DNA of 64,000 bases from contig JAWLHK010000001.1 of assembly GCA_041690355.1 (NCBI GenBank), forward strand, positions 124,001 through 188,000. Direction: 5' to 3'. The notes beneath the pieces are model-generated. The model did no database searches. It was not told where the DNA came from and saw only the letters and a list, made by a program, of their open reading frames with translations. A program made the translations under genes and the position numbers. Source of the DNA: a bacterium (GTDB taxonomy: Bacteria; J088; JAWLBW01). Shown piece by piece: positions 5,124-59,488 of this stretch; position 1 is the stretch's first letter, and each line of letters begins with the position of its first letter.

Positions 5124-5264
5124 ATTCCTGATTCCTGATTCTTAATTCCTAATCAAAGGAACCAACGAAGGACTGAAGAAGCCCGGGAGCCGTGGATGCG
5201 GGTGCGGAATGACCTTGGGCACAGGCCCGCGCTACTCAGGAATCAAGAATCCGGAATCAGGAAT
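5124..5264. repeat. Two inverted ATTCCTG-family heptamer arrays (5124-5154 on +, 5237-5264 on -) between convergent genes
   Basis: attcctg attcctg attctta attccta ... caggaat caagaat ccggaat caggaat. Confidence 0.9.
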
Positions 5265-5278
5265 GCGCGCTCTGCGCG

Positions 5279-6403
5279 CTAGGCGCTCTTGCGCAGCCGC
5301 TTCTGCTCTTCGCGGTGCAGCTCGGCCATCATGCGGTTGAGCGTCGCCTGCGAACGGCCCGGATCGACCTTGATCATGACGCTCTTCGATTCCTGATCGA
5401 TGCGCACGAGCTCGGTGCACAGGCGGCGAAGCTCGTCGACCAGGCGGGCGTGCTTGAGGTGCTGGGCCTGAAGCCGCAGGGCACGCGCTGACTTCTGCAG
5501 AATGGCCTCCATGCCCTCGTGCGGTTTGAGAATGCAGTCGCGCGCCCCGTTTTCCATGGCCATGAGCGCAACGTCGACGGCATTGGCCGGGCTGACGACC
5601 AGAAATTCCATGTCCGGCTGCAGGCGCGCAATCTCGCGATAGGCATCGAAAGCCGTCCCGTCACCCACCTGCGCCTCGGCGAGCAGCAGACGAGGCTCCA
5701 TCTTTTCGGCCGCCGCCACGGCTTCTTTCACGCCCGCCACCATGGTCACGCGGTACCCCTCGGATTCGAGCACGGCGCGGGTACGCTCTCCGGTATAGGG
5801 GTTCGACACCAGATAGAGCACCTGTGCCGGCTCTTTCAGAGATCCCTTGTAGGTACGCAGCATGTCGGAGAAACGATCGACCGCCCCGCGGTGCTCCACC
5901 TCCTTGGGGCGGAAGAGATCTTTCGCAAAATCGCGGAACCGGCCGGTGACGTACTCATCGATGGCTCCCCGACGCCAGCGCTCGAAGGCCGACGCCACGC
6001 GTGAAACCACGAGATCGGTGCGTTCGAGCGGGAGGGGAATCAGATCCTGGGCCCCCAGTTCGAGACACTGCACGGCAAGCTGGCTGTCGGGGTTCAGGGC
6101 CAGGACGATTATTTCGGCCAGCGGGTCTTCCCTGCGCAGCCGCTCGAGAAACGGCAGGCCGCCGCCGGGAACATTAATGTCGACGATGAGCACGGCGACG
6201 CGCTCGAGACTCGCCCATTCTTCGAACAGGGGCGTGTTGACGAAGGGAAACAGCGAGAGGTTTCGCCGTTCGAGCGCAGCCTGCAGACGGCCGCTGACCG
6301 ACTCGTCGGCCGACAACAAGACGACCCGGCCCGACTCGCTCAGCTCGGTGCGATACTGCTCGAGGCCGCCTTCGAAGGAAGCGATGGACGACATCCCGCT
6401 CAT
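5279..6403 (-). CDS. Tandem receiver (REC-REC) protein with no DNA-binding output domain
   Basis: Two CheY-like segments (LIVDINVP..GLPFL; GARDCILKP) and a C-terminal coiled coil; start trimmed to ATG 6403, downstream of TATAAT. Confidence 0.75.
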   Translation of the reverse strand: MSGMSSIASFEGGLEQYRTELSESGRVVLLSADESVSGRLQAALERRNLSLFPFVNTPLFEEWASLERVAVLIVDINVPGGGLPFLERLRREDPLAEIIVLALNPDSQLAVQCLELGAQDLIPLPLERTDLVVSRVASAFERWRRGAIDEYVTGRFRDFAKDLFRPKEVEHRGAVDRFSDMLRTYKGSLKEPAQVLYLVSNPYTGERTRAVLESEGYRVTMVAGVKEAVAAAEKMEPRLLLAEAQVGDGTAFDAYREIARLQPDMEFLVVSPANAVDVALMAMENGARDCILKPHEGMEAILQKSARALRLQAQHLKHARLVDELRRLCTELVRIDQESKSVMIKVDPGRSQATLNRMMAELHREEQKRLRKSA

Positions 6404-6495
6404 GGGACCAACATTATATCGGATCGGCCCCGGGAAAGCAGACCGCGGGTACCTATAGGTCGCCGAGCACCCTCTGAGAGTTCCCGCGTTCCCCC

Positions 6496-6533
6496 AAAAA
6501 GAAAGGGCCTGCCGATGCGGCAGGCCCTTTCTC
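6496..6533 (-). terminator. Rho-independent terminator of the beta-barrel operon
   Basis: gaaagggcctgccg-atg-cggcaggccctttc hairpin followed by a T-run on the minus strand. Confidence 0.85.
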
Positions 6534-6549
6534 AAATGATCCTGACGGC

Positions 6550-10113: not shown

Positions 10114-11490
10114 ATGCTCAATCACGCCGAAATCGCCCTGCTCGTGGCCGAACTGCAGCCGTGGCTCGGGGCCGTCGTCCAGCGCGCCCAGCAGGGAGCT
10201 CCCGAAACGCTGACCCTGGCCTTGCGCCGGCCCGGCTCGACACGCCACCTGCATTTCGCGCTGGAGCGGGGCAACCCGCGCTTTCACTTCGTGGCCGGGC
10301 GGGCGCCTGCCCTGCCGCGGCCGCCGGCCTTCTCCATGGCCCTGCGCAAGCACCTGGGGGGCGCGCGCCTGGGCGCAGTTCGCCAACCGGATCGCGAACG
10401 CATCATCCACCTGGAGTTCGAGAAGGGGGGGCGCGGGATGACGCTTGTCGCCGAGTTGCTCCCCGCCGCCCCCAACCTGCTGCTCGTCGAGGACCTCGAC
10501 CAGTCCGGCGGCAGACTGCTGGCCCGAATGTTCCGCGACGATCGCAATGTCGGCGTGGGTCGACCCTACATCGCACCCGCCCCGCCGCCGCAGCGCGAAG
10601 ACGCCGAGCGCGTCGAGGCGCGGGTTCGGGAATGGACCGGCGCATCCTTCCACGATTATCTGGCGGAACTCTTTGCCGAGGCCCGCGCGGCCGACAGCGA
10701 CGAGGAGCGGCGTCGCGAGCGCGCGCGACGTGAGGCCAAGCGCGACCGGCTGCTCGCCCGCCTGCAGGCCGACTGGGAGCGCGCAGGCGATCCCGACCGG
10801 TGGCGGCGCTACGGCGATCTGCTGGCCGCGCGCCCCGCTCTCGAACCGCAGGGCAAGACCACGCTCGAGACGGCCGACGACGACGGACGCCCGGTCTCGA
10901 TTCCCGTGCTTCCCGAACTGACGCGCAACGAACAGATCGACTGGTTCTACCGGCGCGCCCGCAAGGCCGATTCGGCCCGCCGCCACATTGCAGAGCGGCG
11001 GCGGCTGGTCGAGACCGATGCGCTCGATGCTGCCCCCCGGAGCGGAACTCCGGAGGACGATGCGGCGAAGCGGCCGGAACCGATGCCGCTCCCCGCGAAC
11101 CTGCCCAAAGGGCACGCCTACCGCTTCGCGGGCGGGAGCCTGGTGATGGTGGGGCGCAGCGCGGCCGAAAATGATCGCATCACGTTCGGCTGGGCACGCC
11201 CCGACGACGTCTGGATGCACGCGCGCGACGTGACGGGCGCGCATGTGGTCGTCCGCCACTCCCCGGCCGACGAGCGGGAGGCGCTGCTCGACGATGCTGC
11301 GCGGCTCGCGCTCCACTATTCAAGCCGGCGCGGCGAAGCGGCCGGCGACGTGCACATGACGCAGCGCCGTTACCTCCAGAGCATGAAGGGAGCGCCCGGC
11401 AAGGTGCGCATCCTGCGCGAAGAGAACCGGCGGGTGGGCGTGAGCCGCGACGATCTGGAGCGGCTGGAGATATTGCGCCTGGTTCGCTGA
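10114..11490 (+). CDS. rqcH: NFACT family ribosome quality-control protein (RqcH/Rqc2/FbpA-like)
   Basis: NFACT-N motifs F.M.LRKHL.GA.L..V.Q...ERII.L.F and LVAEL; NFACT-R motifs VGRSA.END.IT and D.WMHAR...GAHVVV. Confidence 0.85.
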   Translation: MLNHAEIALLVAELQPWLGAVVQRAQQGAPETLTLALRRPGSTRHLHFALERGNPRFHFVAGRAPALPRPPAFSMALRKHLGGARLGAVRQPDRERIIHLEFEKGGRGMTLVAELLPAAPNLLLVEDLDQSGGRLLARMFRDDRNVGVGRPYIAPAPPPQREDAERVEARVREWTGASFHDYLAELFAEARAADSDEERRRERARREAKRDRLLARLQADWERAGDPDRWRRYGDLLAARPALEPQGKTTLETADDDGRPVSIPVLPELTRNEQIDWFYRRARKADSARRHIAERRRLVETDALDAAPRSGTPEDDAAKRPEPMPLPANLPKGHAYRFAGGSLVMVGRSAAENDRITFGWARPDDVWMHARDVTGAHVVVRHSPADEREALLDDAARLALHYSSRRGEAAGDVHMTQRRYLQSMKGAPGKVRILREENRRVGVSRDDLERLEILRLVR

Positions 11491-11497
11491 CCCCCGA

Positions 11498-11600
11498 ATT
11501 TACAATTTACGATTGACGATTGACGATTTTCCAGCAAGGGCCCAAGGTTTGACTGTCCTTTTTCTGCGCTTGGCGCTTGGCGCTTGACGTTTGACGCTTG
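11498..11600 (+). repeat. Composite heptamer element copy A: ATTGACG array, spacer, GCGCTTG array
   Basis: atttaca atttacg attgacg attgacg atttt ... gcgcttg x3 acgtttg acgcttg. Confidence 0.9.
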
Positions 11601-11641: not shown

Positions 11642-12193
11642 ATGGATATGGAAGAACAGGATTCGCTGGCGCCGGGATTTCTGATCGCGGTTCCGCAGCT
11701 GAAAGACCCGCATTTCGACCACACCGTCACCCTGCTCGTCGAGGCGAGCCCTGAAGGCGCCTTCGGCCTCGTCGTCAACCGGATGTCGCCCATCAAGCTG
11801 GCCGACGTCTGCGCGCAGAACGACCTCTCCTGCACACGCGACGATTTCATTCACATCGGCGGCCCCGTCGATCAGGAGCGCGCCTGGGTGTTGCACGGCC
11901 CGGGGATCCGTTCTGCCGATTCCCTGGAGATCACCGACGGCATTCTGCTGACCGCGACGTGGGAGGTGCTCGGCGAGCTGGCACAGAGCCGCGAAGAAAT
12001 GCTGGTCTGCCTCGGCTACGCCGGGTGGGGTCCCGGCCAGCTGGAGCAGGAGCTGAGCGAGGGGGCATGGTTGGTCGCGCCGCTGGATCGTGACATCCTT
12101 TTTCGTACCGCCGGAAAGGACATGTGGCGCAAGGTCATCGAAAAGATGGGCCTGGATCCGGGACGCATCGGCACGGGGGGCGGCGTTCACTGA
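11642..12193 (+). CDS. yqgE: YqgE/AlgH family protein
   Basis: FLIAVPQLKDPHF, GAFGLVVN, GGPV and GYAGWGPGQLEQE motifs; start at ATG 11642 or 11648. Confidence 0.9.
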   Translation: MDMEEQDSLAPGFLIAVPQLKDPHFDHTVTLLVEASPEGAFGLVVNRMSPIKLADVCAQNDLSCTRDDFIHIGGPVDQERAWVLHGPGIRSADSLEITDGILLTATWEVLGELAQSREEMLVCLGYAGWGPGQLEQELSEGAWLVAPLDRDILFRTAGKDMWRKVIEKMGLDPGRIGTGGGVH

Positions 12194-12218
12194 ATTGACG
12201 ATTGACAATTGACGATTT
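12194..12218 (+). repeat. ATTGACG heptamer array directly after the stop codon
   Basis: attgacg attgaca attgacg attt. Confidence 0.85.
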
Positions 12219-12230: not shown

Positions 12231-13211
12231 ATGAAGGAAGAGGGGGTACCCATGGCCCCGCCCGGTGCGGGGAGTGAAGACGGCGGCGCGACGCTCGGTC
12301 CCGCCCTCGGCCGCCTTCGCTCCCGATTCTACGGCGCCATCGTCAACGACCTCCTCCCGCACGTCGTCAACCTCGGCGACACCTCTGACCCCGCAGCCGC
12401 GGACCTGTTCTACCACGACATCCCTTATCACGATCATGAAGGCGTGAGCGTGCAGCTCGACGTGCACGCGCCGCCGTTTCCCGGCCCCCATCCCGTGCTC
12501 GTCGCCTTTCACGGCGGGGCCTGGATCTACGGCATGCGCGAAAATCTGCGCCGCGCGGCCCGTTACCTCGCGCGCCAGGGGTTCGTCGTTTTCAACTGCT
12601 CGTACCGTCTTGCCCGCGACCATCCGTTTCCCGCCGGGGTTCAGGACGCCGTCTGCGCGCTGCGGTGGGTTCACCGTCACGCGGCGGAATACGGCGGAGA
12701 TCCGGGGCGCATCGGCGTCTGGGGCGACTCTGCCGGCGGGCACCTTTCGGCCGTCATCGCGGCCGCGCGCCACGCTCCCGCCGTGCAGCCCGAATGCGCC
12801 TGCACGACCTGTGAAAGCGTTCCCGTCGAAGCCGCGGTTCACTTTTATGGCGTCTATGACTTCGAGCGCTTTGCACGCCTGCGGTTTCCTTTCGTGCGGG
12901 GGATCATGCGCACCGTGTTCGGCGAGCGTCACGCCGACCCGGCCGCGCTGCAGGAACTCTCACCGGTGACCTGGGCCGAGCGCGGAAAAGTTCCCCCGAC
13001 GCTTCTCCTCTGCGGAGCCTACGATCCCCTGCTCGGTGAGACGCAGCGCTATGCCCGGCGGCTGCGGGAGTTGGGGACCGACGTGGGCGTCCGCGTCTAT
13101 CCGCATGGGGTCCACGGATTCGTTTACCTGTGGTGGACCGGGGAGTACCGGCATTCGCTCGCGCTCGCCGCCGGCCACTTCCGCCGGCATCTGGGCGCAG
13201 GCGTGCATTGA
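12231..13211 (+). CDS. Alpha/beta hydrolase (HSL-type esterase/lipase)
   Basis: HGGAW, GDSAGG nucleophile elbow, DPL and HGF triad motifs. Confidence 0.9.
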   Translation: MKEEGVPMAPPGAGSEDGGATLGPALGRLRSRFYGAIVNDLLPHVVNLGDTSDPAAADLFYHDIPYHDHEGVSVQLDVHAPPFPGPHPVLVAFHGGAWIYGMRENLRRAARYLARQGFVVFNCSYRLARDHPFPAGVQDAVCALRWVHRHAAEYGGDPGRIGVWGDSAGGHLSAVIAAARHAPAVQPECACTTCESVPVEAAVHFYGVYDFERFARLRFPFVRGIMRTVFGERHADPAALQELSPVTWAERGKVPPTLLLCGAYDPLLGETQRYARRLRELGTDVGVRVYPHGVHGFVYLWWTGEYRHSLALAAGHFRRHLGAGVH

Positions 13212-13220
13212 GCCTTCGCA

Positions 13221-13328
13221 ATGCCCGATAACCAATGGCCGATGCCCGCCCAGAACCGGGAACAGGTACGCCGGTGGTTTTTCTGCCCCTGTGCTCGATT
13301 TGCCATCTGCAATCTGGCTTCTGCAATC
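13221..13328 (+). repeat. Two degenerate heptamer arrays (ATGCCCG-type 13221-13248; ATCTGCA-type 13298-13328)
   Basis: atgcccg ataacca atggccg atgcccg; atttgcc atctgca atctggc ttctgca atc. Confidence 0.7.
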
Positions 13329-13428
13329 CGGCGGCCGGTGGGCTGGAGGGCCCCGAAGGCCTGCGCGCGCGGCCCGCTTCATGCTATGCTGAACCTTTTA
13401 TTCCCCGATTCGGGCCGGCGATTTCCGC

Positions 13429-15740: not shown

Positions 15741-15777
15741 TCCCTCACATTGTGCCCGGTTGACCCATGCGGGATCG

Positions 15778-15830
15778 ATTCCTAATTCCTGATTCGTGAT
15801 TGATTCCAAATTCCTGATTCTTAATTCCTG
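15778..15830 (+). repeat. ATTCCTG heptamer array (about 7 units)
   Basis: attccta attcctg attcgtg attg attccaa attcctg attctta attcctg. Confidence 0.9.
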
Positions 15831-15920: not shown

Positions 15921-16019
15921 CCAGCGCCAAGCGCCAAGCACCAAGCACTAACGAAGCAAACACCTTCGTGAATTCGTACTCGCCGGCAAATCGTCAATCG
16001 TAAATTGTAGATCGTCAAT
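15921..16019 (-). repeat. Composite heptamer element copy B (minus strand)
   Basis: Minus strand: attgacg atctaca atttacg attgacg attt, 39 nt spacer, gtgcttg gtgcttg gcgcttg gcgctgg. Confidence 0.9.
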
Positions 16020-16023: not shown

Positions 16024-17136
16024 ATGATTCGCACTCTCTTCCGCCTCTTGAATCCCCGGCAGCCCCGCCGCCCGGTCTACACCGCATCGCCCACGGCATC
16101 GTCCCGCTACCAGAACAGCGCGCCCCCCGTGCAGATCCGCGACGTGCGTGTGGCCGAGGTCATCGACGAGACGCCCGACGCGAAGACCATCGTCCTCGAG
16201 TTCCCCAGCGGCGAACCGTTCCGCTACCAGGCCGGCCAGTTTCTGACCTTCCTTTTCACGATCAACGGCGAAGAGATCCGTCGCGCTTATTCGTTTTCCT
16301 CCTCTCCCCACGGTGATGCGAAGCGTGCTTCGGTCACGGTGAAGCGTATCGCCGACGGGGTCGGCTCGAATTTCATCCACACGAATGTAAAAGCGGGCGA
16401 TCTGCTGCGCATCATCGGCCCGAGCGGCGACTTCACGATCCCGATACGGCCGGGCGAAAAGCGCCGCTTGGTCTTCGTCGCGGGGGGATCGGGGATCACC
16501 CCCATCCGCAGCCTGACCGAGACGCTGCTCGCCACGGAACCCGAAGTCGAGATCGAGTTGATCTACGGCAACCGCGGCGAGACCGACATCATTTTCCGCA
16601 AGCGCCTCGATGAACTGGCGGCGCAGTACCCGAACCTCAAGCTGACGCACGTCCTGCAGGAGCCCCCCGACGGGTGGCCCGGCCCGGCCGGAATGGTCAC
16701 CGGACAGACCGTGCTCGACCTCGTCGCCGACCGCAAGGACAAGGCGTACTACCTGTGCGGACCCCAGGCGATGATGGACGGCATCACCCCCGCCCTGCGC
16801 GCCGCCGGAGTCGCCGAGCGCAACATTCACATCGAACGCTTCGTCACGCCGCACAAGGAAGAACGCCCCACGGCCCCCATGGCGGTGACCTTTCTGTCGA
16901 GCGGGCGCACGGTGACGCAACACCCGGGCGACACGATTCTCGAGACCGGCCTCGACAACGCCGTGCCCCTCGACTACAGCTGCACGATGGGGGGCTGCGG
17001 GGTGTGCCGCGTGAAGCTCGTATCCGGTACGGTCATCATGGACGAGCCCAACTGCCTGACCCCCGAAGAGCGCCGCGAAGGGTACATCCTCGCCTGCTGC
17101 TCGGCCGCCACCAGCCCCGTGGAGATTGAAGAATGA
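16024..17136 (+). CDS. Ferredoxin-NAD(P) reductase with C-terminal 2Fe-2S domain (PaaE/KshB-like oxygenase reductase)
   Basis: RAYSFSS, AGGSGITP, YLCGP, C-x4-C-x2-C (SCTMGGCGVC) and LACC. Confidence 0.92.
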   Translation: MIRTLFRLLNPRQPRRPVYTASPTASSRYQNSAPPVQIRDVRVAEVIDETPDAKTIVLEFPSGEPFRYQAGQFLTFLFTINGEEIRRAYSFSSSPHGDAKRASVTVKRIADGVGSNFIHTNVKAGDLLRIIGPSGDFTIPIRPGEKRRLVFVAGGSGITPIRSLTETLLATEPEVEIELIYGNRGETDIIFRKRLDELAAQYPNLKLTHVLQEPPDGWPGPAGMVTGQTVLDLVADRKDKAYYLCGPQAMMDGITPALRAAGVAERNIHIERFVTPHKEERPTAPMAVTFLSSGRTVTQHPGDTILETGLDNAVPLDYSCTMGGCGVCRVKLVSGTVIMDEPNCLTPEERREGYILACCSAATSPVEIEE

Positions 17137-19673: not shown

Positions 19674-19757
19674 CCTTTTATGATAGATATATGGACCCAT
19701 CCGTCCGGAAATACCTTTTATGATAGATATATGGACCCATCCGTCCGGAAATACCTT
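19674..19757 (+). repeat. Exact 40-bp tandem duplication spanning a promoter and start codon
   Basis: ccttttatgatagatatatggacccatccgtccggaaata repeated twice. Confidence 0.95.
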
Positions 19758-20113: not shown

Positions 20114-21217
20114 ATGAGCACCGCCGCCGCCCCCCTTCTCCGCTTCAAGAACGCCACCGTCGACGAGATCGAGAGCGCCCTCGCGCCGCTGGGCGTGAAC
20201 GCGAAGATCGCCCGGCGCCTGCAGGCCGCCGTCTGCCGCAAGGGGCACGCCGAGATTCCCCTCGACATCCCCGAGGTGTCGCCCAAGCTGCTGCAGCGGG
20301 TGCGCGAGGTGACCGACGTGCCGCGCCTGACCTTGATCGACAAGGTCGTCTCGCCGACCGACGGGTTCGCGAAGTACCTCTTTCGCGGCGAGGGTGAGCA
20401 GCCGTTCGAGACGGTGCGCATTCCGCTGCTGCACCGGGAAGGGGACCAGAAGTACGTGCTCTGCGTGAGCTCGCAGGTCGGCTGCGCCATGGCCTGCGCC
20501 TTCTGCGCCACGGGCAAGCTGGGATTTCAGCGGAACCTGGCAACCTGGGAGATCATCGATCAGGTCCTCCAGGTGCAGGCGGATTCGGAACATCCCGTGC
20601 GCGGCATCGTCTTCATGGGCATGGGCGAACCGATGCTCAACTACGACCGCGTCATGCGCGCGGCCCGTATCCTCTCGGAACCGTCGGGGCTCGCCATCGA
20701 CGGCAAGGCGATCACGATCAGCACCGTCGGCATCGTCCCCATGATCCGCCGGTTCACGCGCGAGAAGCGGCCGTACAAGCTGGTCGTCTCGCTCACGAGC
20801 GCCGACCCGGAAACGCGCAAAACGCTGCTCCCCATCGAGAACAAGTACTCCACCGCGAACCTGCTGGATGCCGTCCGCGAGTACCATGCCGTGACCGGAA
20901 AGCGCGTGACATTTGCCTGGACGCTGATTTCCGGCGTGAACACCCGCGAAGAGGACGCGCGCCGGCTGGCGGAACTCACGCGCGACCTGCCGATCATTCT
21001 CGACATCATCGACGTGAACGATCCCACCGGGGAATTCCGCCGTCCCGACGAAGCGGAACTCAACCGCTTCCGCGATGCCCTCAACGAGCACCTCAAGCAA
21101 CCGGTCGTGCGGCGCTACAGCGGCGGGCAGGACATCGGCGGAGGCTGCGGCATGCTGGCGGGGCAACAGTCGGACGTCGGACGTCAGACGCCGGACGTCG
21201 GTGAAACAAGAGCGTGA
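20114..21217 (+). CDS. rlmN: RlmN/Cfr-class radical SAM RNA methyltransferase (divergent)
   Basis: CVSSQVGCAMACAFCATG, FMGMGEP, ISTVG and C-terminal GCG; start at ATG 20114. Confidence 0.8.
   Translation: MSTAAAPLLRFKNATVDEIESALAPLGVNAKIARRLQAAVCRKGHAEIPLDIPEVSPKLLQRVREVTDVPRLTLIDKVVSPTDGFAKYLFRGEGEQPFETVRIPLLHREGDQKYVLCVSSQVGCAMACAFCATGKLGFQRNLATWEIIDQVLQVQADSEHPVRGIVFMGMGEPMLNYDRVMRAARILSEPSGLAIDGKAITISTVGIVPMIRRFTREKRPYKLVVSLTSADPETRKTLLPIENKYSTANLLDAVREYHAVTGKRVTFAWTLISGVNTREEDARRLAELTRDLPIILDIIDVNDPTGEFRRPDEAELNRFRDALNEHLKQPVVRRYSGGQDIGGGCGMLAGQQSDVGRQTPDVGETRA
21171..21201 (+). repeat. CGGACGT heptamer array inside the 3' end of the rlmN-like ORF
   Basis: cggacgt cggacgt cagacgc cggacgt cgg. 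Confidence 0.85.
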
Positions 21218-21230
21218 GTGCCGTGGAGAA

Positions 21231-21326
21231 GCGCTGAGCGCCGAGCGCCAAGCGCAGACCCAGGCAGAAACTGAGTTCTCACGTCCTTGCCGGTAAATCG
21301 TCAATCGTAAATCGTCAATCGTCAAT
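21231..21326 (-). repeat. Composite heptamer element copy C (minus strand)
   Basis: Minus strand: attgacg attgacg atttacg attgacg attt, 39 nt spacer, gcgcttg gcgctcg gcgctca gcgc. Confidence 0.9.
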
Positions 21327-21825: not shown

Positions 21826-21842
21826 CGGACGTCGGACGTCGG
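21826..21842 (+). repeat. Short CGGACGT heptamer array upstream of rnpB
   Basis: cggacgt cggacgt cgg. Confidence 0.6.
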
Positions 21843-24979: not shown

Positions 24980-25609
24980 TCACCTTGTGGCCAGGATGGA
25001 ATGGCCGCATGCGCCAAGCACGCGGCGAATGGTCTCGGTTTCAAGTCGGGAAGGAGGAAGTTCGGCGACAGCGTCTCCGCGGCGGGCGAAGGCGCGGATC
25101 ATGATTTCAATCAGCATGCCGAGAACGGCGGCGGCGGTCACCTCGGCGTTCTGGAGCGGAAAGAGGCCCTGCGCTTCGCCCCGGCGGATGGCGGCCGCCA
25201 GGTTGTCGCTGTGTTTCCGGTGATAAGCCAGCTTGGCCGCCTCGAGGCGCTCGTCGCGGTCCATGCGCTCGAGCAGAAGGAACAGCGTCATGCCGGGATT
25301 CCGCCGGGCGCGCTGGAGCGCCACGCGGATGGCGGCGGCGATGGCCTCGGCCGCATCCGCATGTTTCTCGAGCGCCTCCTGCAGCGCGTCGAGTTCGATC
25401 TGCGCGCGGACCTCAAACAGGGCGAGCACGAGATCGGCGCGGTTGCGGAAGTAGGTATACAGGCTGCCCACGGCGAGTCCCGCGCGCGCGGCCACGGCAT
25501 CCATCGACAACGGCGTCTCTTCCTTGACGAGGCGCGCGGCGGCGTCGAGGATCAAGGCGCGGGTGCGCTCTTTCTTCTCGAGGATGCGGGGGGTTTCGCG
25601 GTAGGCCAT
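24980..25609 (-). CDS. TetR family regulator
   Basis: N-terminal HTH SMDAVAARAGLAVGSLYTYF. Confidence 0.9.
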   Translation of the reverse strand: MAYRETPRILEKKERTRALILDAAARLVKEETPLSMDAVAARAGLAVGSLYTYFRNRADLVLALFEVRAQIELDALQEALEKHADAAEAIAAAIRVALQRARRNPGMTLFLLLERMDRDERLEAAKLAYHRKHSDNLAAAIRRGEAQGLFPLQNAEVTAAAVLGMLIEIMIRAFARRGDAVAELPPSRLETETIRRVLGACGHSILATR

Positions 25610-25611: not shown

Positions 25612-25645
25612 CAGTCTTCAGTCGTCAGTCTTCAAGTTGTCAGTC
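25612..25645 (+). repeat. CAGTCTT heptamer array abutting the TetR start
   Basis: cagtctt cagtcgt cagtctt caagttgt cagtc. Confidence 0.8.
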
Positions 25646-25713: not shown

Positions 25714-25770
25714 ATCTGCCATCGGCGAGCTGCCATCTGTCATTCCTGAAGCGATTTGCCATCTGCCATT
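25714..25770 (+). repeat. ATCTGCC heptamer array
   Basis: atctgcc atcggcg agctgcc atctgtc ... atttgcc atctgcc att. Confidence 0.75.
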
Positions 25771-25792
25771 CCCGCAGGGTTATGCTGTAGGG

Positions 25793-36454: not shown

Positions 36455-37426
36455 ATGATCGACCTCGAACGGCTGAACAAGATCCACCTGAAGCCGAAGC
36501 CCCGCTTCCAGCGCCTGATTGCGACGTTCGGCCTCCTGCCGAACTACAACTGGCCGGGGCGAAAGACGAGCATCATCTTCGAAGGCGAAGACAACGTCCC
36601 CCGCGCGGGCGGATGCATCTTCGTCATGAACCATACCGATCGCTACAACTACTGGCCGTTCCAGTACATGCTCTGGCGCAAGGGGCTCGGCTTCACGGCC
36701 GCCTGGGTCAAGGGGAAGTATTACGAGAACCCCATGATGGCCTGGTTCATGGACGCCGCGAACAATATTCCGCTGCCCTCCAAGGGGTATGTCCTGAGCA
36801 AGGACTTCCAGCTGGCCATGCAGCGCGATCCGGAGAAGACGGAATACGAGACGCTCAAGAGCTACACCGACGGAAAGATCGATGCCGATGAGGCGGCCCG
36901 GCAGGGGGGCGAAGGGCTCCGCGAGTTTCTCGCCCGCGACTGGCCGGCGGGCAATTATGCGGACGATCTCGAAAACCGCTTCCGGGCCATGATGCAGCGG
37001 GTGCTGCAGATTACGCGCGAGGGGTTGGCGAAGGGGCTCAGCCTGCTCGTTTTTCCCCAGGGAACCCGGTCCATCACGCTGACCCGCGGCCACACGGGCG
37101 TGGCCCAGGTCGTGCTCGACACGAATGCCCCGGTCGTGCCGGTCGGCTGCAACGGCTCAGACCACGCCTATCCGGGCAGCTCACCGTTCAGCGTGGGCGG
37201 AACGATCATTTATCGCATCGGCAAGCCGCTGACCGTCGAGGGCGACCTCAAACCGTTTCGCATCAACGAGCCGTTCGTGCCGTTCACGCAGAGCGCCGAG
37301 AAGCATCACCAAACCTTCCGCAAGCTGACGGACCTGATGATGGACCGTATCAACGAGCTGCTCGACCCGCGCTATCAGTACGCGACGGATGCGCACCTGG
37401 CCAAGGGTTCAGACCGGTTTCTCTGA
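36455..37426 (+). CDS. PlsC-type acyltransferase
   Basis: MNHTD, VFPQGTRS, VVPVG..G. Confidence 0.85.
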   Translation: MIDLERLNKIHLKPKPRFQRLIATFGLLPNYNWPGRKTSIIFEGEDNVPRAGGCIFVMNHTDRYNYWPFQYMLWRKGLGFTAAWVKGKYYENPMMAWFMDAANNIPLPSKGYVLSKDFQLAMQRDPEKTEYETLKSYTDGKIDADEAARQGGEGLREFLARDWPAGNYADDLENRFRAMMQRVLQITREGLAKGLSLLVFPQGTRSITLTRGHTGVAQVVLDTNAPVVPVGCNGSDHAYPGSSPFSVGGTIIYRIGKPLTVEGDLKPFRINEPFVPFTQSAEKHHQTFRKLTDLMMDRINELLDPRYQYATDAHLAKGSDRFL

Positions 37427-37505
37427 GTTTGCCAGTTTTCAGTTCTGAGTTCTGAGTTCTGGAAACTCATGACTCATAACTCGTCACTCGTAACTCGTAA
37501 CTCGT
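37426..37505. repeat. Two adjacent heptamer arrays between convergent genes (AGTTCTG on +; ACGAGTT on -)
   Basis: agttttc agttctg x3; aactcat gactcat aactcgt cactcgt aactcgt aactcgt. Confidence 0.9.
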
Positions 37506-37508: not shown

Positions 37509-37868
37509 TCACTCCCGCCACAGGATGCTCCAGCCGCCGCCGTACCGGCCCGGATCGTAGCCGCCCGGCAGCGCAAGGAGCGTGATCGCGAGCGCCGTGA
37601 GAACGTGTCCGATGACGACCCCCTGCGGTCCGCCGAAAAGGGCTGCCGCCCCCAGAAGCCCGATGGCCAGGGGAATGCAGACCAGGCGCACCGGCCGCAG
37701 CACGCGCCAGAGCGACATGAAGGCAAAGCTCACGATCAGCGGCCCGGCAATCTGGTCGGCCGTGGCCAGCGGAAGTTCCGCATAGCCGAACCCGTGCGGA
37801 GCGGCCACGAGCGCAAGCCCGAGCAGGACGTTGACGCCCTGGGCGAAACGGGGGAGTCGATCAGTCAC
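37509..37868 (-). CDS. SPW-repeat-type membrane protein
   Basis: Four TM segments, D.IAGPL and C-terminal RYGGGW; GTG start overlaps the VKOR stop. Confidence 0.7.
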   Translation of the reverse strand: MTDRLPRFAQGVNVLLGLALVAAPHGFGYAELPLATADQIAGPLIVSFAFMSLWRVLRPVRLVCIPLAIGLLGAAALFGGPQGVVIGHVLTALAITLLALPGGYDPGRYGGGWSILWRE

Positions 37869-41304: not shown

Positions 41305-41910
41305 ATGAAAGATACCGTCGTTTCCAACCGTAACGAATCGGTGCGCATGTTCGAGAGCCGCTTTCTCGAGGCTTTCTCGCACGTGCACCCGATTACGCCG
41401 CTGGTCCTCTTCGTCCCGGTCGTGGCCTGGTTTCTCTACACGGCCTTCGCAAGCGTCGGGCTGCACGCCGGAGAGGTGCTGGCCGGATTTCTCGGCGGTC
41501 TCTTCGCGTGGACGCTGCTTGAGTACACGCTGCACCGTCACGTCTTTCACTTCGCCCCCGACACACGCTGGGGGCGGCGGCTGCATTTCATCATGCACGG
41601 CGTGCATCACGAGTATCCGAACGACAGCACGCGGCTCGTCATGCCGCCGGGCCTGAGCATCCCGCTCGCCTTCGTCGTCCACGCGGGGCTCGCGGCCGCC
41701 GCCGGGCGCTTCGCCGCTCCGATGTTTGCCGGCATCGTGACCGGCTATCTCGCCTACGACATGCTGCACTACGCCGTGCACCACTTGCGCGCGCGCAATC
41801 GGCTCTTTCTGGCCCTCAAGCGCAACCACATGCTGCACCACTACCGCGACGACGACAGCCGCTACGGGGTCAGCACCCCCCTCTGGGACTACGTCTTTCG
41901 CACCCGCTGA
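41305..41910 (+). CDS. Fatty acid hydroxylase / sterol desaturase family (FA2H-like)
   Basis: His boxes EY.LHR..FH, HG.HH, YD..HY..HH, H..HH; YGVSTPLWD. Confidence 0.92.
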   Translation: MKDTVVSNRNESVRMFESRFLEAFSHVHPITPLVLFVPVVAWFLYTAFASVGLHAGEVLAGFLGGLFAWTLLEYTLHRHVFHFAPDTRWGRRLHFIMHGVHHEYPNDSTRLVMPPGLSIPLAFVVHAGLAAAAGRFAAPMFAGIVTGYLAYDMLHYAVHHLRARNRLFLALKRNHMLHHYRDDDSRYGVSTPLWDYVFRTR

Positions 41911-41916: not shown

Positions 41917-42061
41917 ATTGACGAGTGACAATTTACAATTGACGATTTGCCGGAAACTGAGATACCGGCAGTCCAATACAGACATACGTCAGGCATGAGT
42001 CGTCGGGTCGGGGCAGAGTCTCGCCCGAGAAATCGTCAATCGTCATTCGTAAATTGTAAAT
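41917..42061. repeat. Two inverted ATTGACG arrays (41917-41948 on +, 42030-42061 on -) between convergent genes
   Basis: attgacg agtgaca atttaca attgacg attt ... aaat cgtcaat cgtcatt cgtaaat tgtaaat. Confidence 0.9.
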
Positions 42062-43446
42062 TAAAGGAGGGTGCCGGTCAGCAGGGCCGAGGCGACCGTG
42101 AAGTAGATGACGACGCCGGTGACATCGACCAGGGTCGCCACGAACGGGGTCGACGAGGTCGCCGGATCGGCCCCGAGCCGCTTCATGAGAAAAGGGAGCA
42201 TCGAGCCCGTCAGCGTGCCCCAGAGCACGACGCCGAGCAGTGAGATGCCGACGACGAGGGCCACCAGATACCAGTGTTCCCCGTAAACGTGAAAGACCTG
42301 CTCCCAGACGGCGACGCGCAGAAACCCGATGACGCCGAGCATCGAGCCCAGCGCCAGCCCCGAGAAGATCTCGCGGCGCATGACCTGCCACCAGTCGTGC
42401 AGGCGCAGTTCGCCAACGGCCAGCGCGCGAATGACGAGCGTGGCGGCCTGCGAGCCGCTGTTGCCCCCGCTCGAGATGATGAGCGGCACGAACAGGGCGA
42501 GAATGACGGCGCGTGCTATCTGGTCCTCGAAATAGGCCATGGCGCTTGCGGTCAGCATCTCGCCGATGAACAGGACGACGAGCCAGGGGGCGCGCTTGCC
42601 GAACAGTTCCCCGAACGAGGTGTTCAGATACGGCTCGTCGAGCGCCTCGGTGCCGCCGAGCTTCTGAATGTCTTCGGTGGCCTCGCGCTCGGCGACGTCG
42701 AGCACGTCGTCATGGGTCACGATGCCCACGAGCACGCCGCCGGCATCGGTCACCGGCAGGGCTACCCGCCCGTAGGCGCGAAAGGCCTCAATGGCCGATT
42801 CCTGATCTTCGGTGGCCCGCAGTGACACGAAGCGCTCGTCCATCAGATCGGCCAGCTTCGTTTCGGGATTGGCCAGCAGCAGTTCGCGGATGCGCAGATC
42901 GTCGATGAGGCGGCCGCCCTGATCGATCAGGTAGACCACGTTGAGCGTCTCGCTGTCCTTGCCGTGGCGGCGGATGTGCTCGAGCGCTTCCCTCACATTC
43001 CACTCGGGGCGCAGCGAGACGAATTCGGGGGTCATGAGGCGCCCGATGCTCCCCTCGGGGTAGCCGAGCAGCGTGAGCGTGACCTTGCGCTCTTCGGGCG
43101 AGAGCAGCACGATGAGCCGCTGCGCCACGGCGCCGGGCAGCTCCTCGAGAAAGGCCGTCCGGTCGTCGGGGCTCAGTTCGTTGAGCACGCCGGCGAGAAA
43201 GTCCTTCTCCTGCGCCAGCGCCTCGACCAGCGCCTGCTGCTTCTCGAAGGGCATGTACTCGAAGGCGTCGGCGGCCAGGCCGCGAGGGAGCAGGCGAAAG
43301 ACGATGACGTCTTCCTGGCGCGAAAGATCGGCGATGAGCGCGGCAATTTCCGGCGGGGTCCACTCGGCGAGCAGCCCGCTCAGGGCGCGGAAATCGCGGC
43401 GCTCAATCAGCTCTTCGATCTCGGGTTTGAACAGGTGCTCGAGCAT
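42061..43446 (-). CDS. mgtE: Magnesium transporter MgtE (copy 1)
   Basis: N domain, CBS pair, PLIISSGGNSGSQAAT, PFVATLVDVTG. Confidence 0.95.
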   Translation of the reverse strand: MLEHLFKPEIEELIERRDFRALSGLLAEWTPPEIAALIADLSRQEDVIVFRLLPRGLAADAFEYMPFEKQQALVEALAQEKDFLAGVLNELSPDDRTAFLEELPGAVAQRLIVLLSPEERKVTLTLLGYPEGSIGRLMTPEFVSLRPEWNVREALEHIRRHGKDSETLNVVYLIDQGGRLIDDLRIRELLLANPETKLADLMDERFVSLRATEDQESAIEAFRAYGRVALPVTDAGGVLVGIVTHDDVLDVAEREATEDIQKLGGTEALDEPYLNTSFGELFGKRAPWLVVLFIGEMLTASAMAYFEDQIARAVILALFVPLIISSGGNSGSQAATLVIRALAVGELRLHDWWQVMRREIFSGLALGSMLGVIGFLRVAVWEQVFHVYGEHWYLVALVVGISLLGVVLWGTLTGSMLPFLMKRLGADPATSSTPFVATLVDVTGVVIYFTVASALLTGTLL

Positions 43447-56229: not shown

Positions 56230-58074
56230 TCAGCCGCCGGTTCCACCCGAAGAGACCGTTTCCTTCGGTAAATCGGCCTCGTTTCCGGCTGCCGGCTCGG
56301 GCGCCGGTCGCGTGCCGCGGCACTCGGGGTATCGCGTGCAGCCGTAGAAGGAACCGAATTTCCCCTCGCGCAGGCGCATGAGCGCGTGGCAGCGGGGGCA
56401 GCGCATCTCGCCGGCGGGCGCCGACTCGGCCCACCGCTTGCGCGCCGCGGCGAGCTGGCCCGTGAAATCGGCATACCACTCGCGCAGATAGGCGATGCGC
56501 TCCAGTTTATGCTCTGCGATCCGGTCCAGCGAAGCCTCCATGGCCGCCGTGTACGTGGGCTCGAGCAGGTCGGGAACGCCGCCGGCCAGAAAGGCATCGA
56601 CCTGCAGGCCGAGTTCGGTGGGATAAAGGGCAGGCGACTTCTTCTTCTCTTCCTGCGCGACGTAGCCGCGCTTGCGCAGCACGTCGAGGGTGCTGCTGTA
56701 GGTCGAAGGGCGACCGATGCCGAGGCGCTTCATCGTTTCGATGAGGGTCGCCTCCTTGTAGCGCGGCGGGGGCGAAGTCTTCTTCGTTTCGCTGTCGACC
56801 GTCTTCACGTCGAGCCGATCGCCCGCCGTGAGCGACGGCACGGCGTCTTCGTCGCCGTCTTCCTCATCGTCGGCGACATCGCCGATGGCGAGAAACCCCG
56901 GTTCGACGAGCCGCATGCCCACCGCGCGCAACGTGAGGTCCTCGGCGGCGACGGTGACCGTCGTGCGGTCGAAGCGCGCCGGCCGCGCCTGACTGGCCAC
57001 GAAGCGTTTCCAGATCAGGGCGTAGAGGGCCGCCTCTTCTTTCGTCAAGTCGGGAATCCGCCCGCGTTCGGGCTCGGTCGGGCGGATACACTCGTGCGCT
57101 TCCTGGCTGTCGGCCTTGTTCCGGTAGACCGGCGGCTTTTCGGGGAGCGCATCGGGAAAGTGTTTTTCGAGGATGCGCCGGGCCGCCTCCTGCGCCTCGG
57201 GGGCCACCGTGACCGAATCGGTGCGGATGTAGGTTATGAAGCCCCCCTCGAACAGCTTCTGCGCCACCCGGCTCGTCAGATCCGTCTTCCACCCGAGGCG
57301 CGTACCCGCCGCCTTGAGCAGTGAGCTGGTCTCGAACGGCGGCTTCGGTTTGCGATCGACCGGACTCGTGTCGACCGACTGCACGCGGTGCTCGGCCCGC
57401 TCGAGCACGGCGACGACGTCTTTCGGCTCTGCCTCGAACTGGGTCAGCCGCAGCTTGCCGTTGTCGTCGATGTCGGCCAGGCCGGCCACGAGACCGTTGG
57501 CATAGGTGACCCGCACGGTCCAGTAGCGGCGATCCTGAAAGGCCAGGCGCTCGCGTTCGCGGCTGCAGATCAGGTGCAGTACGCAGCTCTGCACGCGCCC
57601 CGCCGAGAGCCGGTCGCCCAGCGGCTTGAGCTCGGGCGAAAGCGTATAGCCGACCAGGCGATCGAGAATACGCCGCGCCTGCTGCGCCTCGACGAGCGCG
57701 ACGTCGAGGGTGCGCGGCTTCGCGAGCGCCTTCGTGACGGCCCCCTTGGTGATCTCGTGGAATTCGGCGCGGACCGGATCGGTCAGATCGAGCACCTGGG
57801 CCACGTGCCAGGCAATGGCTTCGCCCTCCCGATCGGGGTCGGTCGCCAGAATGATTCGTTCGGCCCGGGCGGCCGCGCGCCGGAGCGACTCGACCATGTC
57901 GCGCTTCTTCTCGTCGACCTCGTAGGCGGCCTCGAACGAACGGGTGTCGACGCCGAGCGTGCGGGCGGGCAGATCGCGGAAGTGGCCGACGGTCGACTGG
58001 ATCTGGTAGCCGTCGCCCAGAATCTGGCGGAGCTTCTTGATCTTGTTCGGCGATTCGATGATCAGCAGGTCCAT
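56230..58074 (-). CDS. topA: Type IA DNA topoisomerase
   Basis: IIESP.K, ATDPDREGEAI, SAGRVQS, ITYIRTD, QEAHE.IRP, GIGRPSTY; one C4 zinc ribbon. Confidence 0.95.
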   Translation of the reverse strand: MDLLIIESPNKIKKLRQILGDGYQIQSTVGHFRDLPARTLGVDTRSFEAAYEVDEKKRDMVESLRRAAARAERIILATDPDREGEAIAWHVAQVLDLTDPVRAEFHEITKGAVTKALAKPRTLDVALVEAQQARRILDRLVGYTLSPELKPLGDRLSAGRVQSCVLHLICSRERERLAFQDRRYWTVRVTYANGLVAGLADIDDNGKLRLTQFEAEPKDVVAVLERAEHRVQSVDTSPVDRKPKPPFETSSLLKAAGTRLGWKTDLTSRVAQKLFEGGFITYIRTDSVTVAPEAQEAARRILEKHFPDALPEKPPVYRNKADSQEAHECIRPTEPERGRIPDLTKEEAALYALIWKRFVASQARPARFDRTTVTVAAEDLTLRAVGMRLVEPGFLAIGDVADDEEDGDEDAVPSLTAGDRLDVKTVDSETKKTSPPPRYKEATLIETMKRLGIGRPSTYSSTLDVLRKRGYVAQEEKKKSPALYPTELGLQVDAFLAGGVPDLLEPTYTAAMEASLDRIAEHKLERIAYLREWYADFTGQLAAARKRWAESAPAGEMRCPRCHALMRLREGKFGSFYGCTRYPECRGTRPAPEPAAGNEADLPKETVSSGGTGG

Positions 58075-58135
58075 GGGGGCCTACAGTGTAGCAGACGCCC
58101 GGGCGAGCTGACGTGTGCCCGGCGCTTCGCCGATT

Positions 58136-59443
58136 CTATACGAAGATGGCGGTCAGCACCAGCCCCGCGACCGTAAAGTAGAGGATGATGCCGGTGACGT
58201 CGATGATCGTCGTCACCAGCGGCGCCGAGCTGCTGGCGGGGTCGAAGCCGGCGCGGCGCAGCATGAAGGGGAGCGTGGATCCGATGAACGTCCCCCAGAG
58301 CACGATACCGAGGATGCTCAGGGAGACCGTGAAGGCAACCCCCAGGTAGTTCGGGCCGTATTCGCCGAAGAGCCACTCCCAGAGCACGACGCGCAGGAGG
58401 CCGAGCGCGGCGAGAATGCCGCCCAGGATGGCGCCGGTGATGAACTCCCGTCGCACCACCCGCCACCAGTCGCTGAGGCGCACTTCGGAGAGGGCCATGG
58501 CGCGCACGACCAGCGTGGCCGCCTGCGAACCCGAATTTCCCCCGCTGCTGATGATGAGCGGCAGAAACAGGGCGAGCACCACGGCGCGCGCGATATCGTC
58601 GGCGAAATAGCTCATGGCGGTCGCCGTGAGCAGCCCGCCGAAAAACAGGGCCGCCAGCCAGCCGCCGCGCTTGCGCACCATGTCGGCAATCGAGGTTTCG
58701 AGATAGGGCGCCTCGAGCGACTCGGTGCCGCCGAGTTTGTGGATGTCTTCGGTAGCTTCTTCGTTCACGACGTCGACGATGTCGTCGACGGTGATGACGC
58801 CGACCATGCGCCCCGCATCGTCGACGACCGGAACGACGATGAACCCGTATTCGCGGAAAATGCGGCTGACGCGCTCCTGATCGTCGTCTTCGCGCACACT
58901 CACGACCTCGGGCTCCATGATGTTGGCCACGAGCTCGCTGCGCGGCGCCATCATGAGCTGACGCAGGGTAACCACGCCGACCAGTCGCCCCTGTGCGTCG
59001 ATGACGTACTGGTAGTAAATCGTTTCAGCCTGCCCGTGCGCCTGGATGCGGACGTAGCGGATGGCCTCGTCGGCGTTCATCTCGGGCCGCAGGATGATGA
59101 AGCGGGGATTCATGATCCCGCCGGCTTCATCCTCGGCGTACGAGAGCAGCGCGGTCACTTCATGGCGCGTGTTCGTATCGAGGGCCGCGAGCAGCGGCGA
59201 ACGCTCGTCGGGTTCCATCTCCTGCAGCAGGTCGGCCAGATCGTCGGGGGGGAGCAGGCGAATCCAGTGGCGCCGCAGCTCTTCGGGAAAGACGCGGAAC
59301 AGTTCTGCCTGGTCGCGCGCCGACAGTGTCTGCAGCAGATCGTCGGCCTCGGTGGCCGGCAGCGCGCGAAACGCCTCGACCCGCTCAGGGCCCGAGAGCG
59401 CCGACCATGCATCCAGCAGTTCCGCAGCGGTAACGCGATCCAT
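58136..59443 (-). CDS. mgtE: Magnesium transporter MgtE (copy 2)
   Basis: CBS pair, PLIISSGGNSGSQAAT, PLVTTIIDVTG. Confidence 0.95.
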   Translation of the reverse strand: MDRVTAAELLDAWSALSGPERVEAFRALPATEADDLLQTLSARDQAELFRVFPEELRRHWIRLLPPDDLADLLQEMEPDERSPLLAALDTNTRHEVTALLSYAEDEAGGIMNPRFIILRPEMNADEAIRYVRIQAHGQAETIYYQYVIDAQGRLVGVVTLRQLMMAPRSELVANIMEPEVVSVREDDDQERVSRIFREYGFIVVPVVDDAGRMVGVITVDDIVDVVNEEATEDIHKLGGTESLEAPYLETSIADMVRKRGGWLAALFFGGLLTATAMSYFADDIARAVVLALFLPLIISSGGNSGSQAATLVVRAMALSEVRLSDWWRVVRREFITGAILGGILAALGLLRVVLWEWLFGEYGPNYLGVAFTVSLSILGIVLWGTFIGSTLPFMLRRAGFDPASSSAPLVTTIIDVTGIILYFTVAGLVLTAIFV

Positions 59444-59488
59444 TCGACTTACGACTTACGAGTGACGAGTGACGAGTGACGAGTGACG
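59444..59488 (+). repeat. ACGAGTG heptamer array abutting the mgtE start codon
   Basis: tcgactt acgactt acgagtg x4 acg. Confidence 0.92.

Follow-up and report, generated by a model that had tools for sequence, protein, structure and literature searches.

Why do short tandem arrays of seven-nucleotide units, variable in sequence and fixed in period, lie between the genes of a bacterium and read away from whichever gene edge they adjoin? The question arises from a window of 64,000 nucleotides (G000:C1:124001-188000) in a 4.64-Mb genome (G000; 42 contigs, 65.6% GC), in which an earlier note, made from the letters of the window alone, had counted about 21 such heptamer arrays. Here we find that, across the genome, period 7 is enriched far over neighbouring periods and is almost wholly intergenic. 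The gene-less (orphan) arrays follow one another in a fixed order and have their units and their polarity in common with the arms of small cassettes that encode a PF05635 four-helix-bundle protein; the units are restricted to this lineage, and period-7 arms are linked to the PF05635 family across phyla. We propose, with a probability of roughly 0.55, that this genome harbours its own family of small palindromic elements, similar to intervening sequences (IVSs), and that the arrays make up the terminal arms and internal modules of those elements. In this view, IVS-like modules that are palindromic, associated with PF05635 and armed with heptamer arrays have expanded specifically in this lineage.

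Repeats of this kind have been seen in several bacterial groups. The short tandemly repeated repetitive (STRR) sequences of heterocystous cyanobacteria comprise several heptamer families in short tandem intergenic arrays of unexplained function, and long simple-sequence repeats of heptanucleotides were reportedly treated by Mrazek in 2007. The arrays described here share with STRR sequences the several unit families and the short tandem intergenic layout, but are found in an uncultured lineage of 65.6% GC.

The closest precedent is in Xanthomonas (GGGAATC) and Nostoc PCC 7120 (GGGGA(C/T)T), where, in the excerpts of the report drawn on here, the heptamers are about 90% intergenic, lie 'almost exclusively' nearer the open reading frame (ORF) on their 5′ side 'irrespective of the ORFs orientation', occupy the coding strand downstream of an ORF and the non-coding strand upstream of it, in some cases overlap the stop codon, form 70–75 convergent plus/minus pairs and vary in length between relatives (Rehm et al. 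2015, PMC4692102). S23p is not mentioned in that paper, the string 'S23' occurring 0 times. Tandem 7-nt intergenic units, the edge rule and convergent pairs are common to those genomes and to ours, so far as the excerpts extend; one unit is used there, whereas 66 canonical units in a fixed order are used here. The main units here (ATTGACG, ACGAGTG, ATTCCTG, CGGACGT and GCGCTTG) also differ in lacking GGG tracts and are therefore not expected to form G-quadruplexes. The edge polarity that the earlier note had offered as a new clue had therefore been published before, for Xanthomonas GGGAATC and Nostoc GGGGAYT: on the evidence of the same excerpts, both the kind of repeat and its polarity rule have been described yet left unexplained (PMC4692102), and the present genome is an unusually dense, multi-family member of the class. 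The TAACTGA repeats of Beggiatoaceae, cyanobacteria and Bacteroidetes are likewise intergenic, with 2–6 copies and indels in 7-nt steps, and their patchy distribution across phyla suggests horizontal spread; in the portions of that report available, they mostly point to the downstream start codon, whereas here the nearest edge of either kind sets the polarity (PMC4679880). Among the titles and abstracts returned by literature searches that excluded subscription journals, none connects genome-wide intergenic heptamer arrays with PF05635 cassettes.

Period-7 arrays across the genome

In a lag scan of the whole genome, with one score threshold (10) applied to every period, period 7 returned 523 intergenic and 33 coding arrays, against 5 and 5 at period 5, 4 and 96 at period 6, 73 and 4 at period 8, 12 and 102 at period 9, 5 and 4 at period 10, and 11 and 6 at period 11. 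The excess over neighbouring periods, on which the earlier note had staked its interpretation, is thus present (523 intergenic arrays versus 4–73), and whole-genome output of Tandem Repeats Finder (TRF) has 992 rows of period 7 compared with 334 of period 6 and 269 of period 8. The 556 arrays reduce to 66 units when rotation and strand are made canonical, the top 11 accounting for 425 arrays; their density is 8.7 per 100 kb at threshold 12. Most are short (2–5 units in 516 of the 556), and the counts drop sharply from 167 arrays with 4–5 units to 24 with 5–6. ACGAGTG alone contributes 86 arrays, or 97 counting its ACGAGTT variant.

Array polarity follows gene edges

Relative to the edges of predicted genes, ATTGACG arrays read away from the nearest edge in 100 of 128 cases, ACGAGTK in 75 of 93, ATTCCTG in 54 of 69 and CGGACGT in 22 of 25 (binomial p from 1e-10 to 2e-4). 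The rule that the earlier note had drawn from the window for every copy of these four families is therefore real genome-wide (251 of 315 arrays pooled), although 'every' is too strong. Close to genes it is near-absolute: within 30 bp of an edge, the same families read away in 51/53, 34/36, 41/43 and 12/12 cases, respectively, and GCGCTGG, which does so in 17 of 22 arrays overall, reaches 11/11. For these five inward-reading families together, 149 of the 155 arrays within 30 bp of an edge read away from it, including 119 of 124 at 3′ edges and 30 of 31 at 5′ edges.

Transcription has no such influence. Sense and antisense readings with respect to the nearest gene number 56 and 72 for ATTGACG, 38 and 55 for ACGAGTK, 42 and 27 for ATTCCTG and 14 and 11 for CGGACGT, or 150 and 165 when pooled (n = 315). 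Orientation is accordingly non-random across the whole genome and, as the earlier note had supposed, set by the gene edge and not by the direction of transcription, at 3′ and 5′ edges alike. GCGCTTG is opposite in sign (13 of 38 away from the nearest edge, and 0 of 9 within 30 bp), as is GCGCTCG (0 of 4 within 30 bp). Stop codons within the inward-reading units were considered as a cause of the bias and ruled out, because CGGACGT (12/12) and GCGCTGG (11/11), which are free of stops in both orientations, obey the rule.

Fixed order of arrays in gene-less modules

The arrays recur in one order: ACGAGTG> ATTGACG> ttgccggcaaggacc-variable loop-gcccttgcc GCGCTTG>, followed by <ATTCCTG or by the next ACGAGTG. 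Among 110 neighbouring pairs (gap ≤ 90 bp), 72 are co-oriented, 36 convergent and 2 divergent; with A for ATTGACG, G for GCGCTTG and K for ACGAGTG, the ordered neighbours are A>G> (16), K>G> (14), A>K> (14) and K>A> (11). The gene-less modules contain a hairpin (ccggcaaggacc...gcccttgcc), and their sub-terminal motifs are conserved. One such composite lies in the window at 11497-11600, with mirror copies at 15923-16019 and 21230-21326. In a second module, a palindromic core of about 170 bp (ccgttcgtcccgagctgacgg...), present in approximately 60–100 BLAST copies, lies between ATTGACG arms; the example at C5:21271-21560 is predicted to fold as one long hairpin of −133 kcal/mol. Same-family pairs within 450 bp are inward (14) or direct (18) and never outward (0), and many spacers join arms of unlike families (ATTCCTG>..<ATTGACG and ATTCCTG>..<CGGACGT). 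Module copies that are 90–95% identical differ in their arrays by 1–4 units; one difference amounts to an entire array, about 27 nt long.

Two further ideas about the arms gained no support. Arm-to-arm copying, or selection for exact pairing, predicts a mirror symmetry of variant units that was not found, pairs of partner arms showing no greater likeness than non-partners. A strand-specific RNA stem between ACGAGTG and GCGCTTG through G·U pairs was dropped, as 6/7 wobble pairing is common among G/T-rich units (it is seen in A>A>, G>G> and C>G>, and G>W> reaches 7/7); the forward folds are the more stable in 5 of 7 composites. A looser, family-aware scan (12/14 matches) gave too many false tokens for GC-rich or near-palindromic units and was used only qualitatively.

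PF05635 cassettes with inward-reading arms

A profile search of the genome found 10 PF05635 genes over the Pfam cut-off. All five of the proteins that were scanned are TIGR02436 'four helix bundle protein' members, and 2rld is a solved homologue structure. The cassette protein is the 'S23p' intervening-sequence protein, a distant relative of Avd, a protein of diversity-generating retroelements (DGRs); two of the five scanned show weak Avd similarity, below the cut-off of the model (35.4 versus 80 bits). When the flanks of all ten genes were read, heptamer arrays were found beside eight, and inverted, inward-reading arms in seven (Table 1). ATTGACG, ATTCCTG, CGGACGT and GCGCTGG, all present in the window, are used elsewhere as cassette arms in the same inward sense. 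The window's own contig yielded no PF05635 match at E ≤ 0.01, in agreement with the earlier note, which had seen no four-helix-bundle gene there. The note had allowed for either a dedicated writing or deposition mechanism or scars of a cassette that inserts between genes; the seven cassettes with inverted inward arms, four sharing units with the window, favour the latter, and the former is without support.

A promoter-like motif, ctttttcGTTGACatttcc, read by eye, lies inside the arms and is common to three cassettes. In the cassette at C7:58100-58160, a promoter-like TTGACA-N18-TATAAG, also read by eye, ends 7 nt before the ATG, which suggests that this four-helix-bundle mRNA may be leaderless or have a very short leader. 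In C5:67.5-79.7 kb and C2:370.5-373.8 kb, a 6.4-kb gene lies upstream of three near-identical cassettes and a broken fourth; their neighbours include a helix–turn–helix gene and small ORFs in which an RHS motif scores weakly, below its cut-off, a layout like that of an Rhs locus with orphan modules.

Among the closest known counterparts of these cassettes are the IVSs of 23S rRNA. In Coxiella, according to the excerpts used here, the S23p ORF lies within a 28-bp terminal stem that contains tandem GACAGAT heptamers in strain-variable number, and RNase III cuts at the first repeat (PMC4990558). The IVSs of Coxiella, Leptospira and Brucella resemble our cassettes in placing a PF05635-type ORF between terminal inverted repeats, and the Coxiella stem equals about four heptamers, as do the approximately four-unit arms here. 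As far as that source goes, the differences are that the cassettes examined here sit between protein-coding ORFs and not in rRNA helices, have a promoter-like site inside the arms and are accompanied by about 500 gene-less arrays (PMC4990558).

Distribution in relatives and across phyla

Our comparison set comprised 20 related genomes, four of which share the host's phylum and one of which (G001) belongs to the same family. Three tandem ATTGACG units (≤ 2 mismatches) had 277 matches in the host, 1 in G001 and 0 in the 19 other genomes; three ACGAGTG units had 203 in the host and 0 in all 20, and reversed-pattern controls had 0. G001 is about 70–77% identical to the host in syntenic genes, and a syntenic stretch of 15.6 kb contains five period-7 arrays with other units in other spacers. 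The comparison of filled and empty spacers that the earlier note had suggested was made at window position 12193, where the orthologous genes align up to the TGA stop (12191-12193); the ATTGACG array starts at the next base in the host, and unrelated sequence follows in G001. A metagenome search with the protein encoded at 11642-12190 in the window found relatives of ≤ 44% identity only.

Beyond the lineage, we examined 80 loci encoding homologues (47–57% identity) of the C20 cassette protein, in hosts from Nitrospinota, Chloroflexota, Bacteroidota, Acidobacteriota, Planctomycetota, Verrucomicrobiota, Cyanobacteria, Gemmatimonadota and other phyla. Within 400 bp of these genes there are 118 arrays of period 7, against 2 of period 6, 2 of period 8, 1 of period 9, 3 of period 11 and 6 of period 12 (14 together for the non-7 periods from 5 to 12). 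A period-7 array is present at 61 of the 80 loci, an inverted upstream/downstream pair at 29, and ATTGACG or ATTTACG units at five. The distance between arm units rises with that between proteins (Mantel Spearman r = 0.24, reached in 0 of 2,000 permutations; 58 loci with a unit), a correlation to which shared host ancestry may contribute. Samples of 25–100 kb from 16 genomes contain 8 period-7 arrays in 599 kb from PF05635-positive genomes and 2 in 822 kb from negative ones.

A proposed origin of the arrays

We propose that, in its complete form, the element would consist of two inverted arrays, each with about four copies of one heptamer, bracketing a promoter-like site and a PF05635/TIGR02436 gene. 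Most copies would be gene-less, with a short hairpin or the ~170-bp palindromic core set between two arms that often belong to different unit families. The arms would always read inward, and the elements would occupy the spacer as far as the stop codon on 3′ sides and stay further from starts. Because the arms read inward and the elements fill the spacer, the outermost array would read away from whichever edge it abuts, making polarity by gene edge, and not by transcription, a geometric consequence. GCGCTTG would be an inner or right-hand module, and hence opposite in direction.

That the orphan arrays descend from cassettes, spreading by copy-and-paste of hairpin-forming non-autonomous modules, is a route to which we give somewhat less than even odds; array length would then drift by slippage in 7-nt steps. 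Descent is inferred here, since orphan loci were matched only through their arrays when the 10 cassettes were compared with the genome by BLAST, no cassette-internal sequence being shared. By analogy with the Coxiella 23S rRNA IVS, arms of about 28 nt might act as an RNase III-type stem where they match, although we consider this doubtful.

Several observations, in addition to that BLAST result, weigh against the proposed origin. Within the genome, same-family inward pairs within 450 bp number only 14, and partner arms resemble each other no more closely than non-partners do (0.79 versus 0.82, p = 0.81). Most arrays lack a matched stem, so the RNase III idea cannot apply to them; and because so many arm pairs are of unlike families, the formation of a matched stem cannot fix the polarity at most sites. 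ACGAGTG, despite its 86 arrays (97 with ACGAGTT), has no cassette in the genome. No target-site duplication was seen at the junctions read, and no insertion polymorphism was found. Homology among the three near-identical cassettes (99.5% and 94% identity) runs beyond the arms into Rhs-related flanks, so that clean transposition ends could not be defined from them; they look like a segmental duplication in an Rhs region and not a clean transposition. The gene edges came from a home-made codon-usage gene caller (3,640 genes, 85% coverage) and not from a curated annotation. Outside the genome, a period-7 array lies within 450 bp of only 3 of 10 PF05635 loci in seven other genomes, G001 has five PF05635 genes and 0 arrays in a 100-kb sample, and the correlation between PF05635 genes and arrays over the 16 sampled genomes (Spearman 0.51, p = 0.04) is weak, with tiny counts from non-independent kin.

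Comparison with miniature inverted-repeat transposable elements is similarly divided: the arm units are common to cassettes and orphans, yet there are only 14 same-family inverted pairs and no shared internal sequence. We found no transposase linked to the arrays.

A broader joint reading, which we regard as speculative and, taken whole, somewhat unlikely, is that PF05635 cassettes would be the autonomous members of a pan-bacterial family of mobile elements whose arms seed heptamer arrays of the STRR type. The cassette protein, or a partner that it recruits, would read or template single-stranded nucleic acid in a 7-nt register, which the fixed period would reflect, and fresh inward-reading arms would be added on either side of the point of insertion.

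Other explanations of the arrays

Of the alternatives to the IVS-like element family, the one that survives best, improbable though we judge it, is that the arrays are host sequences selected to act in cis—as 3′-end hairpins or insulators, RNase III sites, or sites for nucleoid or single-strand-binding proteins—and are kept for their function, not spread as selfish DNA. Arrays lie tight to stop codons (of those within 30 bp of an edge, 124 adjoin a 3′ end and 31 a 5′ end) and some modules fold very stably; in the excerpted literature, Xanthomonas repeats occupy conserved genomic locations (PMC4692102) and CspB binds heptamer repeats with one protein per unit (PMC4679880). Function in cis sits poorly with the absence of a transcription bias (150 sense, 165 antisense), with arms that mostly have no pairing partner, and with units for which the search of 20 related genomes gave no match in 19 and a single one in G001, in which the orthologous spacer is empty. 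Such a role would nevertheless be compatible with the IVS-like origin as a secondary, co-opted one.

It is quite unlikely, in our view, that polymerase slippage generated the arrays on the spot as ordinary long simple-sequence repeats, with no element involved. Copies of one module do differ by whole 7-nt units, and a slippage or polymerase-footprint idea is cited in the excerpts of the Xanthomonas and Nostoc report (PMC4692102). It is difficult, however, to reconcile slippage with the use of a few units at hundreds of loci (the top 11 in 425 of 556 arrays) or with an abrupt stop at five units (167 arrays with 4–5, 24 with 5–6), and it leaves unexplained the fixed unit order, the near-absolute polarity by gene edges and the same units flanking one gene family across phyla. 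The earlier note's rejection of random slippage consequently stands for the origin and placement of the arrays but not for their length, which slippage still changes, as the 1–4-unit differences between copies of 90–95% identity indicate.

Dedicated writing, in which heptamers would be added 5′ to 3′ on both sides of an intergenic break or hairpin in the manner of telomerase—for example, by a reverse transcriptase with an Avd-like PF05635 protein and an RNA template, giving inward flanks of possibly unlike units—merits equally little credence. It would fit the inward polarity at both edges, the heterologous arms (A>..<T, T>..<C), the near-absence of divergent neighbours (2/110), units that vary while their period does not, and near-identical modules of which one has an entire array that the other lacks; PF05635 proteins are also weakly similar to DGR Avd, which partners a reverse transcriptase. 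The genome's sole reverse transcriptase (532 amino acids; C18:59929-63423), however, lies between an Abi_C-domain protein and a protein with a PLD-like nuclease domain, with no PF05635 gene or array near it; it is probably a defence-type system, and the likeness to DGRs fails there and in the low score of the Avd model (35.4 versus 80 bits). The earlier note's suggestion of a reverse transcriptase flanked by arrays was thus not borne out. A template RNA was not found, and arm units diverge along with the cassette protein from phylum to phylum, a pattern more in keeping with inherited arms than with arms written by the host.

Mobilization of the arrays as repetitive extragenic palindromic (REP)-like sequences by the genome's single Y1 (HUH) transposase is very unlikely: REPs also form intergenic inverted pairs and flank the gene of their REP-associated tyrosine transposase (RAYT), but no main-family array lies within 2.5 kb of the Y1_Tnp gene, contrary to the flanking that the earlier note had envisaged, only GATGGCC/GATGCCC-like motifs occurring downstream, and the arrays flank PF05635 genes instead. 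Like REPs and the bacterial interspersed mosaic elements that they build, with RAYT, the present system has short intergenic palindromic repeats in mosaics and a putative autonomous gene flanked by inverted repeat copies; that gene, however, encodes a four-helix bundle without known catalytic activity and not a Y1 transposase, and the arms are tandem heptamers and not a single palindrome. The motifs downstream of the sole Y1 gene (GATGGCC/GATGCCC/GATGGTC; C3:284300-284660) resemble the weak ATGCCCG units at window position 13221 and the CAATGGT arms of the cassette at C26:16397.

Arrays in the window

With a minimum score of 30, TRF gave 51 rows in the window, of which 19 have period 7 and two period 14. 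They coincide with 18 of the 21 arrays in the earlier note, whose count is confirmed; the other three (13221, 25714 and 41917) are degenerate, lie outside TRF rows and are visible only by reading the letters. A stricter lag-7 detector recovers 11 of the arrays. The approximately nine unit families named in the note do occur, but several are neighbours by one substitution: GACGATT (= ATTGACG) and GACGAGT (= ACGAGTG) differ at one position, as do GCGCTTG and GCGCTGG.

The window contains two pairs of same-family arms (5123-5264 and 41917-42060). After the array at 11497..11529 comes a variant of ccggcaagg, the sub-terminal motif ttccagcaaggg. Gene edges are ambiguous for both CGGACGT copies (21169 and 21826). 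The first of them, at 21169-21201, has a unit without a stop codon and is read through in the frame 20114-21217, a gene that may have gained a repeat-encoded tail.

Table 1 Heptamer arrays in the window (window positions) and PF05635 genes elsewhere in the genome (contig:position)
Feature	Position	Strand or orientation	Context
ATTCCTG, ~4.4 units	5123..5153	+	9 bp past stop of gene 3852-5114; left arm of inverted pair
ATTCCTG (top strand CAGGAAT), ~4.1 units	5236..5264	-	15 bp from stop of convergent gene 5279-6403; right arm
ATTTACG/ATTGACG, 4.6 units	11497..11529	+	7 bp past stop at 11490
GCGCTTG, 5 units	11566..11600	+	Inner/right module of composite A-hairpin-G; then one AGTGACGAGTG unit
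ATTGACG, 3.4 units	12194..12217	+	Begins one base past TGA stop 12191-12193
ATGCCCG/ATGGCCG, degenerate, weak	13221..13247	+	Past stop at 13211; not found by TRF
ATCTGCM, degenerate	13298..13332	+	TRF: period 14 at 13306-13332
ATTCCTG, ~8 degenerate units	15777..15830	+	TRF
GCGCTTG (top strand CAAGCGC), 3.4 units	15923..15948	-	Mirror copy of composite 11497-11600
ATTGACG (top strand CGTCAAT), 4.6 units	15988..16019	-	4 bp before start of gene 16024-17136; reads away from 5′ edge
CGGACGT, 4.7 units	21169..21201	+	Within 3′ end of open frame 20114-21217
GCGCTNG (top strand AGCGCCG), 3.7 units	21230..21255	-	TRF
ATTGACG (top strand AATCGTC), 4.4 units	21293..21326	-	With 21230-21255, mirror copy of A-hairpin-G composite
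CGGACGT, 2.4 units	21826..21842	+	TRF
CAGTCTT/CAGTCGT, 4.7 units	25612..25645	+	3 bp from 5′ edge of minus-strand gene 24980-25609
ATCTGCC, degenerate, weak	25714..25775	+	Not found by TRF
AGTTCTG, 3 perfect units plus degenerate units	37426..37461	+	Immediately past stop of gene 36455-37426
ACGAGTK (top strand AACTCGT), 6 units	37464..37505	-	4 bp from stop of minus-strand gene 37509-37868
ATTGACG, degenerate	41917..41947	+	7 bp past stop at 41910; then tttgccgg; left arm
ATTGACG (top strand AATCGTC)	42031..42060	-	Adjoins stop of minus-strand gene 42061-43446; right arm
ACGACTT, 2.4 units, then ACGAGTG, 4.6 units	59445..59489	+	2 bp from 5′ edge of minus-strand gene 58136-59443; reads away, antisense
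Cassette, CGGACGT arms on both sides	C5:69058	Inverted, inward	
Cassette, CGGACGT arms on both sides	C2:371993	Inverted, inward	
Cassette, GCGCTGG arms on both sides	C5:79357	Inverted, inward	Gene broken by TAA
Cassette, AGTCGTA arms on both sides	C7:58156	Inverted, inward	
Cassette, ATTGACG arms on both sides	C20:48752	Inverted, inward	
Cassette, CAATGGT arms on both sides	C26:16397	Inverted, inward	
Cassette, G-rich-unit arms on both sides	C23:56172	Inverted, inward	
PF05635 gene	C5:71706		3′ arm only
PF05635 gene	C26:38021		Array on one side only
PF05635 gene	C7:230799		Upstream ATTCCTG inward; downstream copy direct, not inverted; upstream region partly duplicated

Tandem repeats of other kinds are also present. 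The window contains a perfect 40-bp tandem repeat at 19674-19757 (2.1 copies, 100% match), AT-rich (CCTTTTATGATAGATATATGG...) amid a genome of 65% GC and unrelated to the heptamer arrays. A separate, non-heptameric repeat of about 90 bp (ccccgtccttctccacccggcgcagcggcagcggagccgcggatggagaagg...) stands in tandem at two nearby spacers (C18:66008-66200 and C18:67082-67270) with 96% identity.

Significance

Decades of cataloguing heptamer arrays, from the STRR sequences to the Xanthomonas, Nostoc and TAACTGA repeats, have yielded neither a source nor a mechanism for them. The present genome is a dense case, with 8.7 arrays per 100 kb alongside about 10 cassettes, and the ties of units, polarity and order to the arms of PF05635 cassettes provide a concrete, testable candidate for the source of such repeats. 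If the joint reading were true, it would account for the heterologous arm pairs, the cap at approximately 4–5 units and the edge polarity observed here, in Xanthomonas and in Nostoc.

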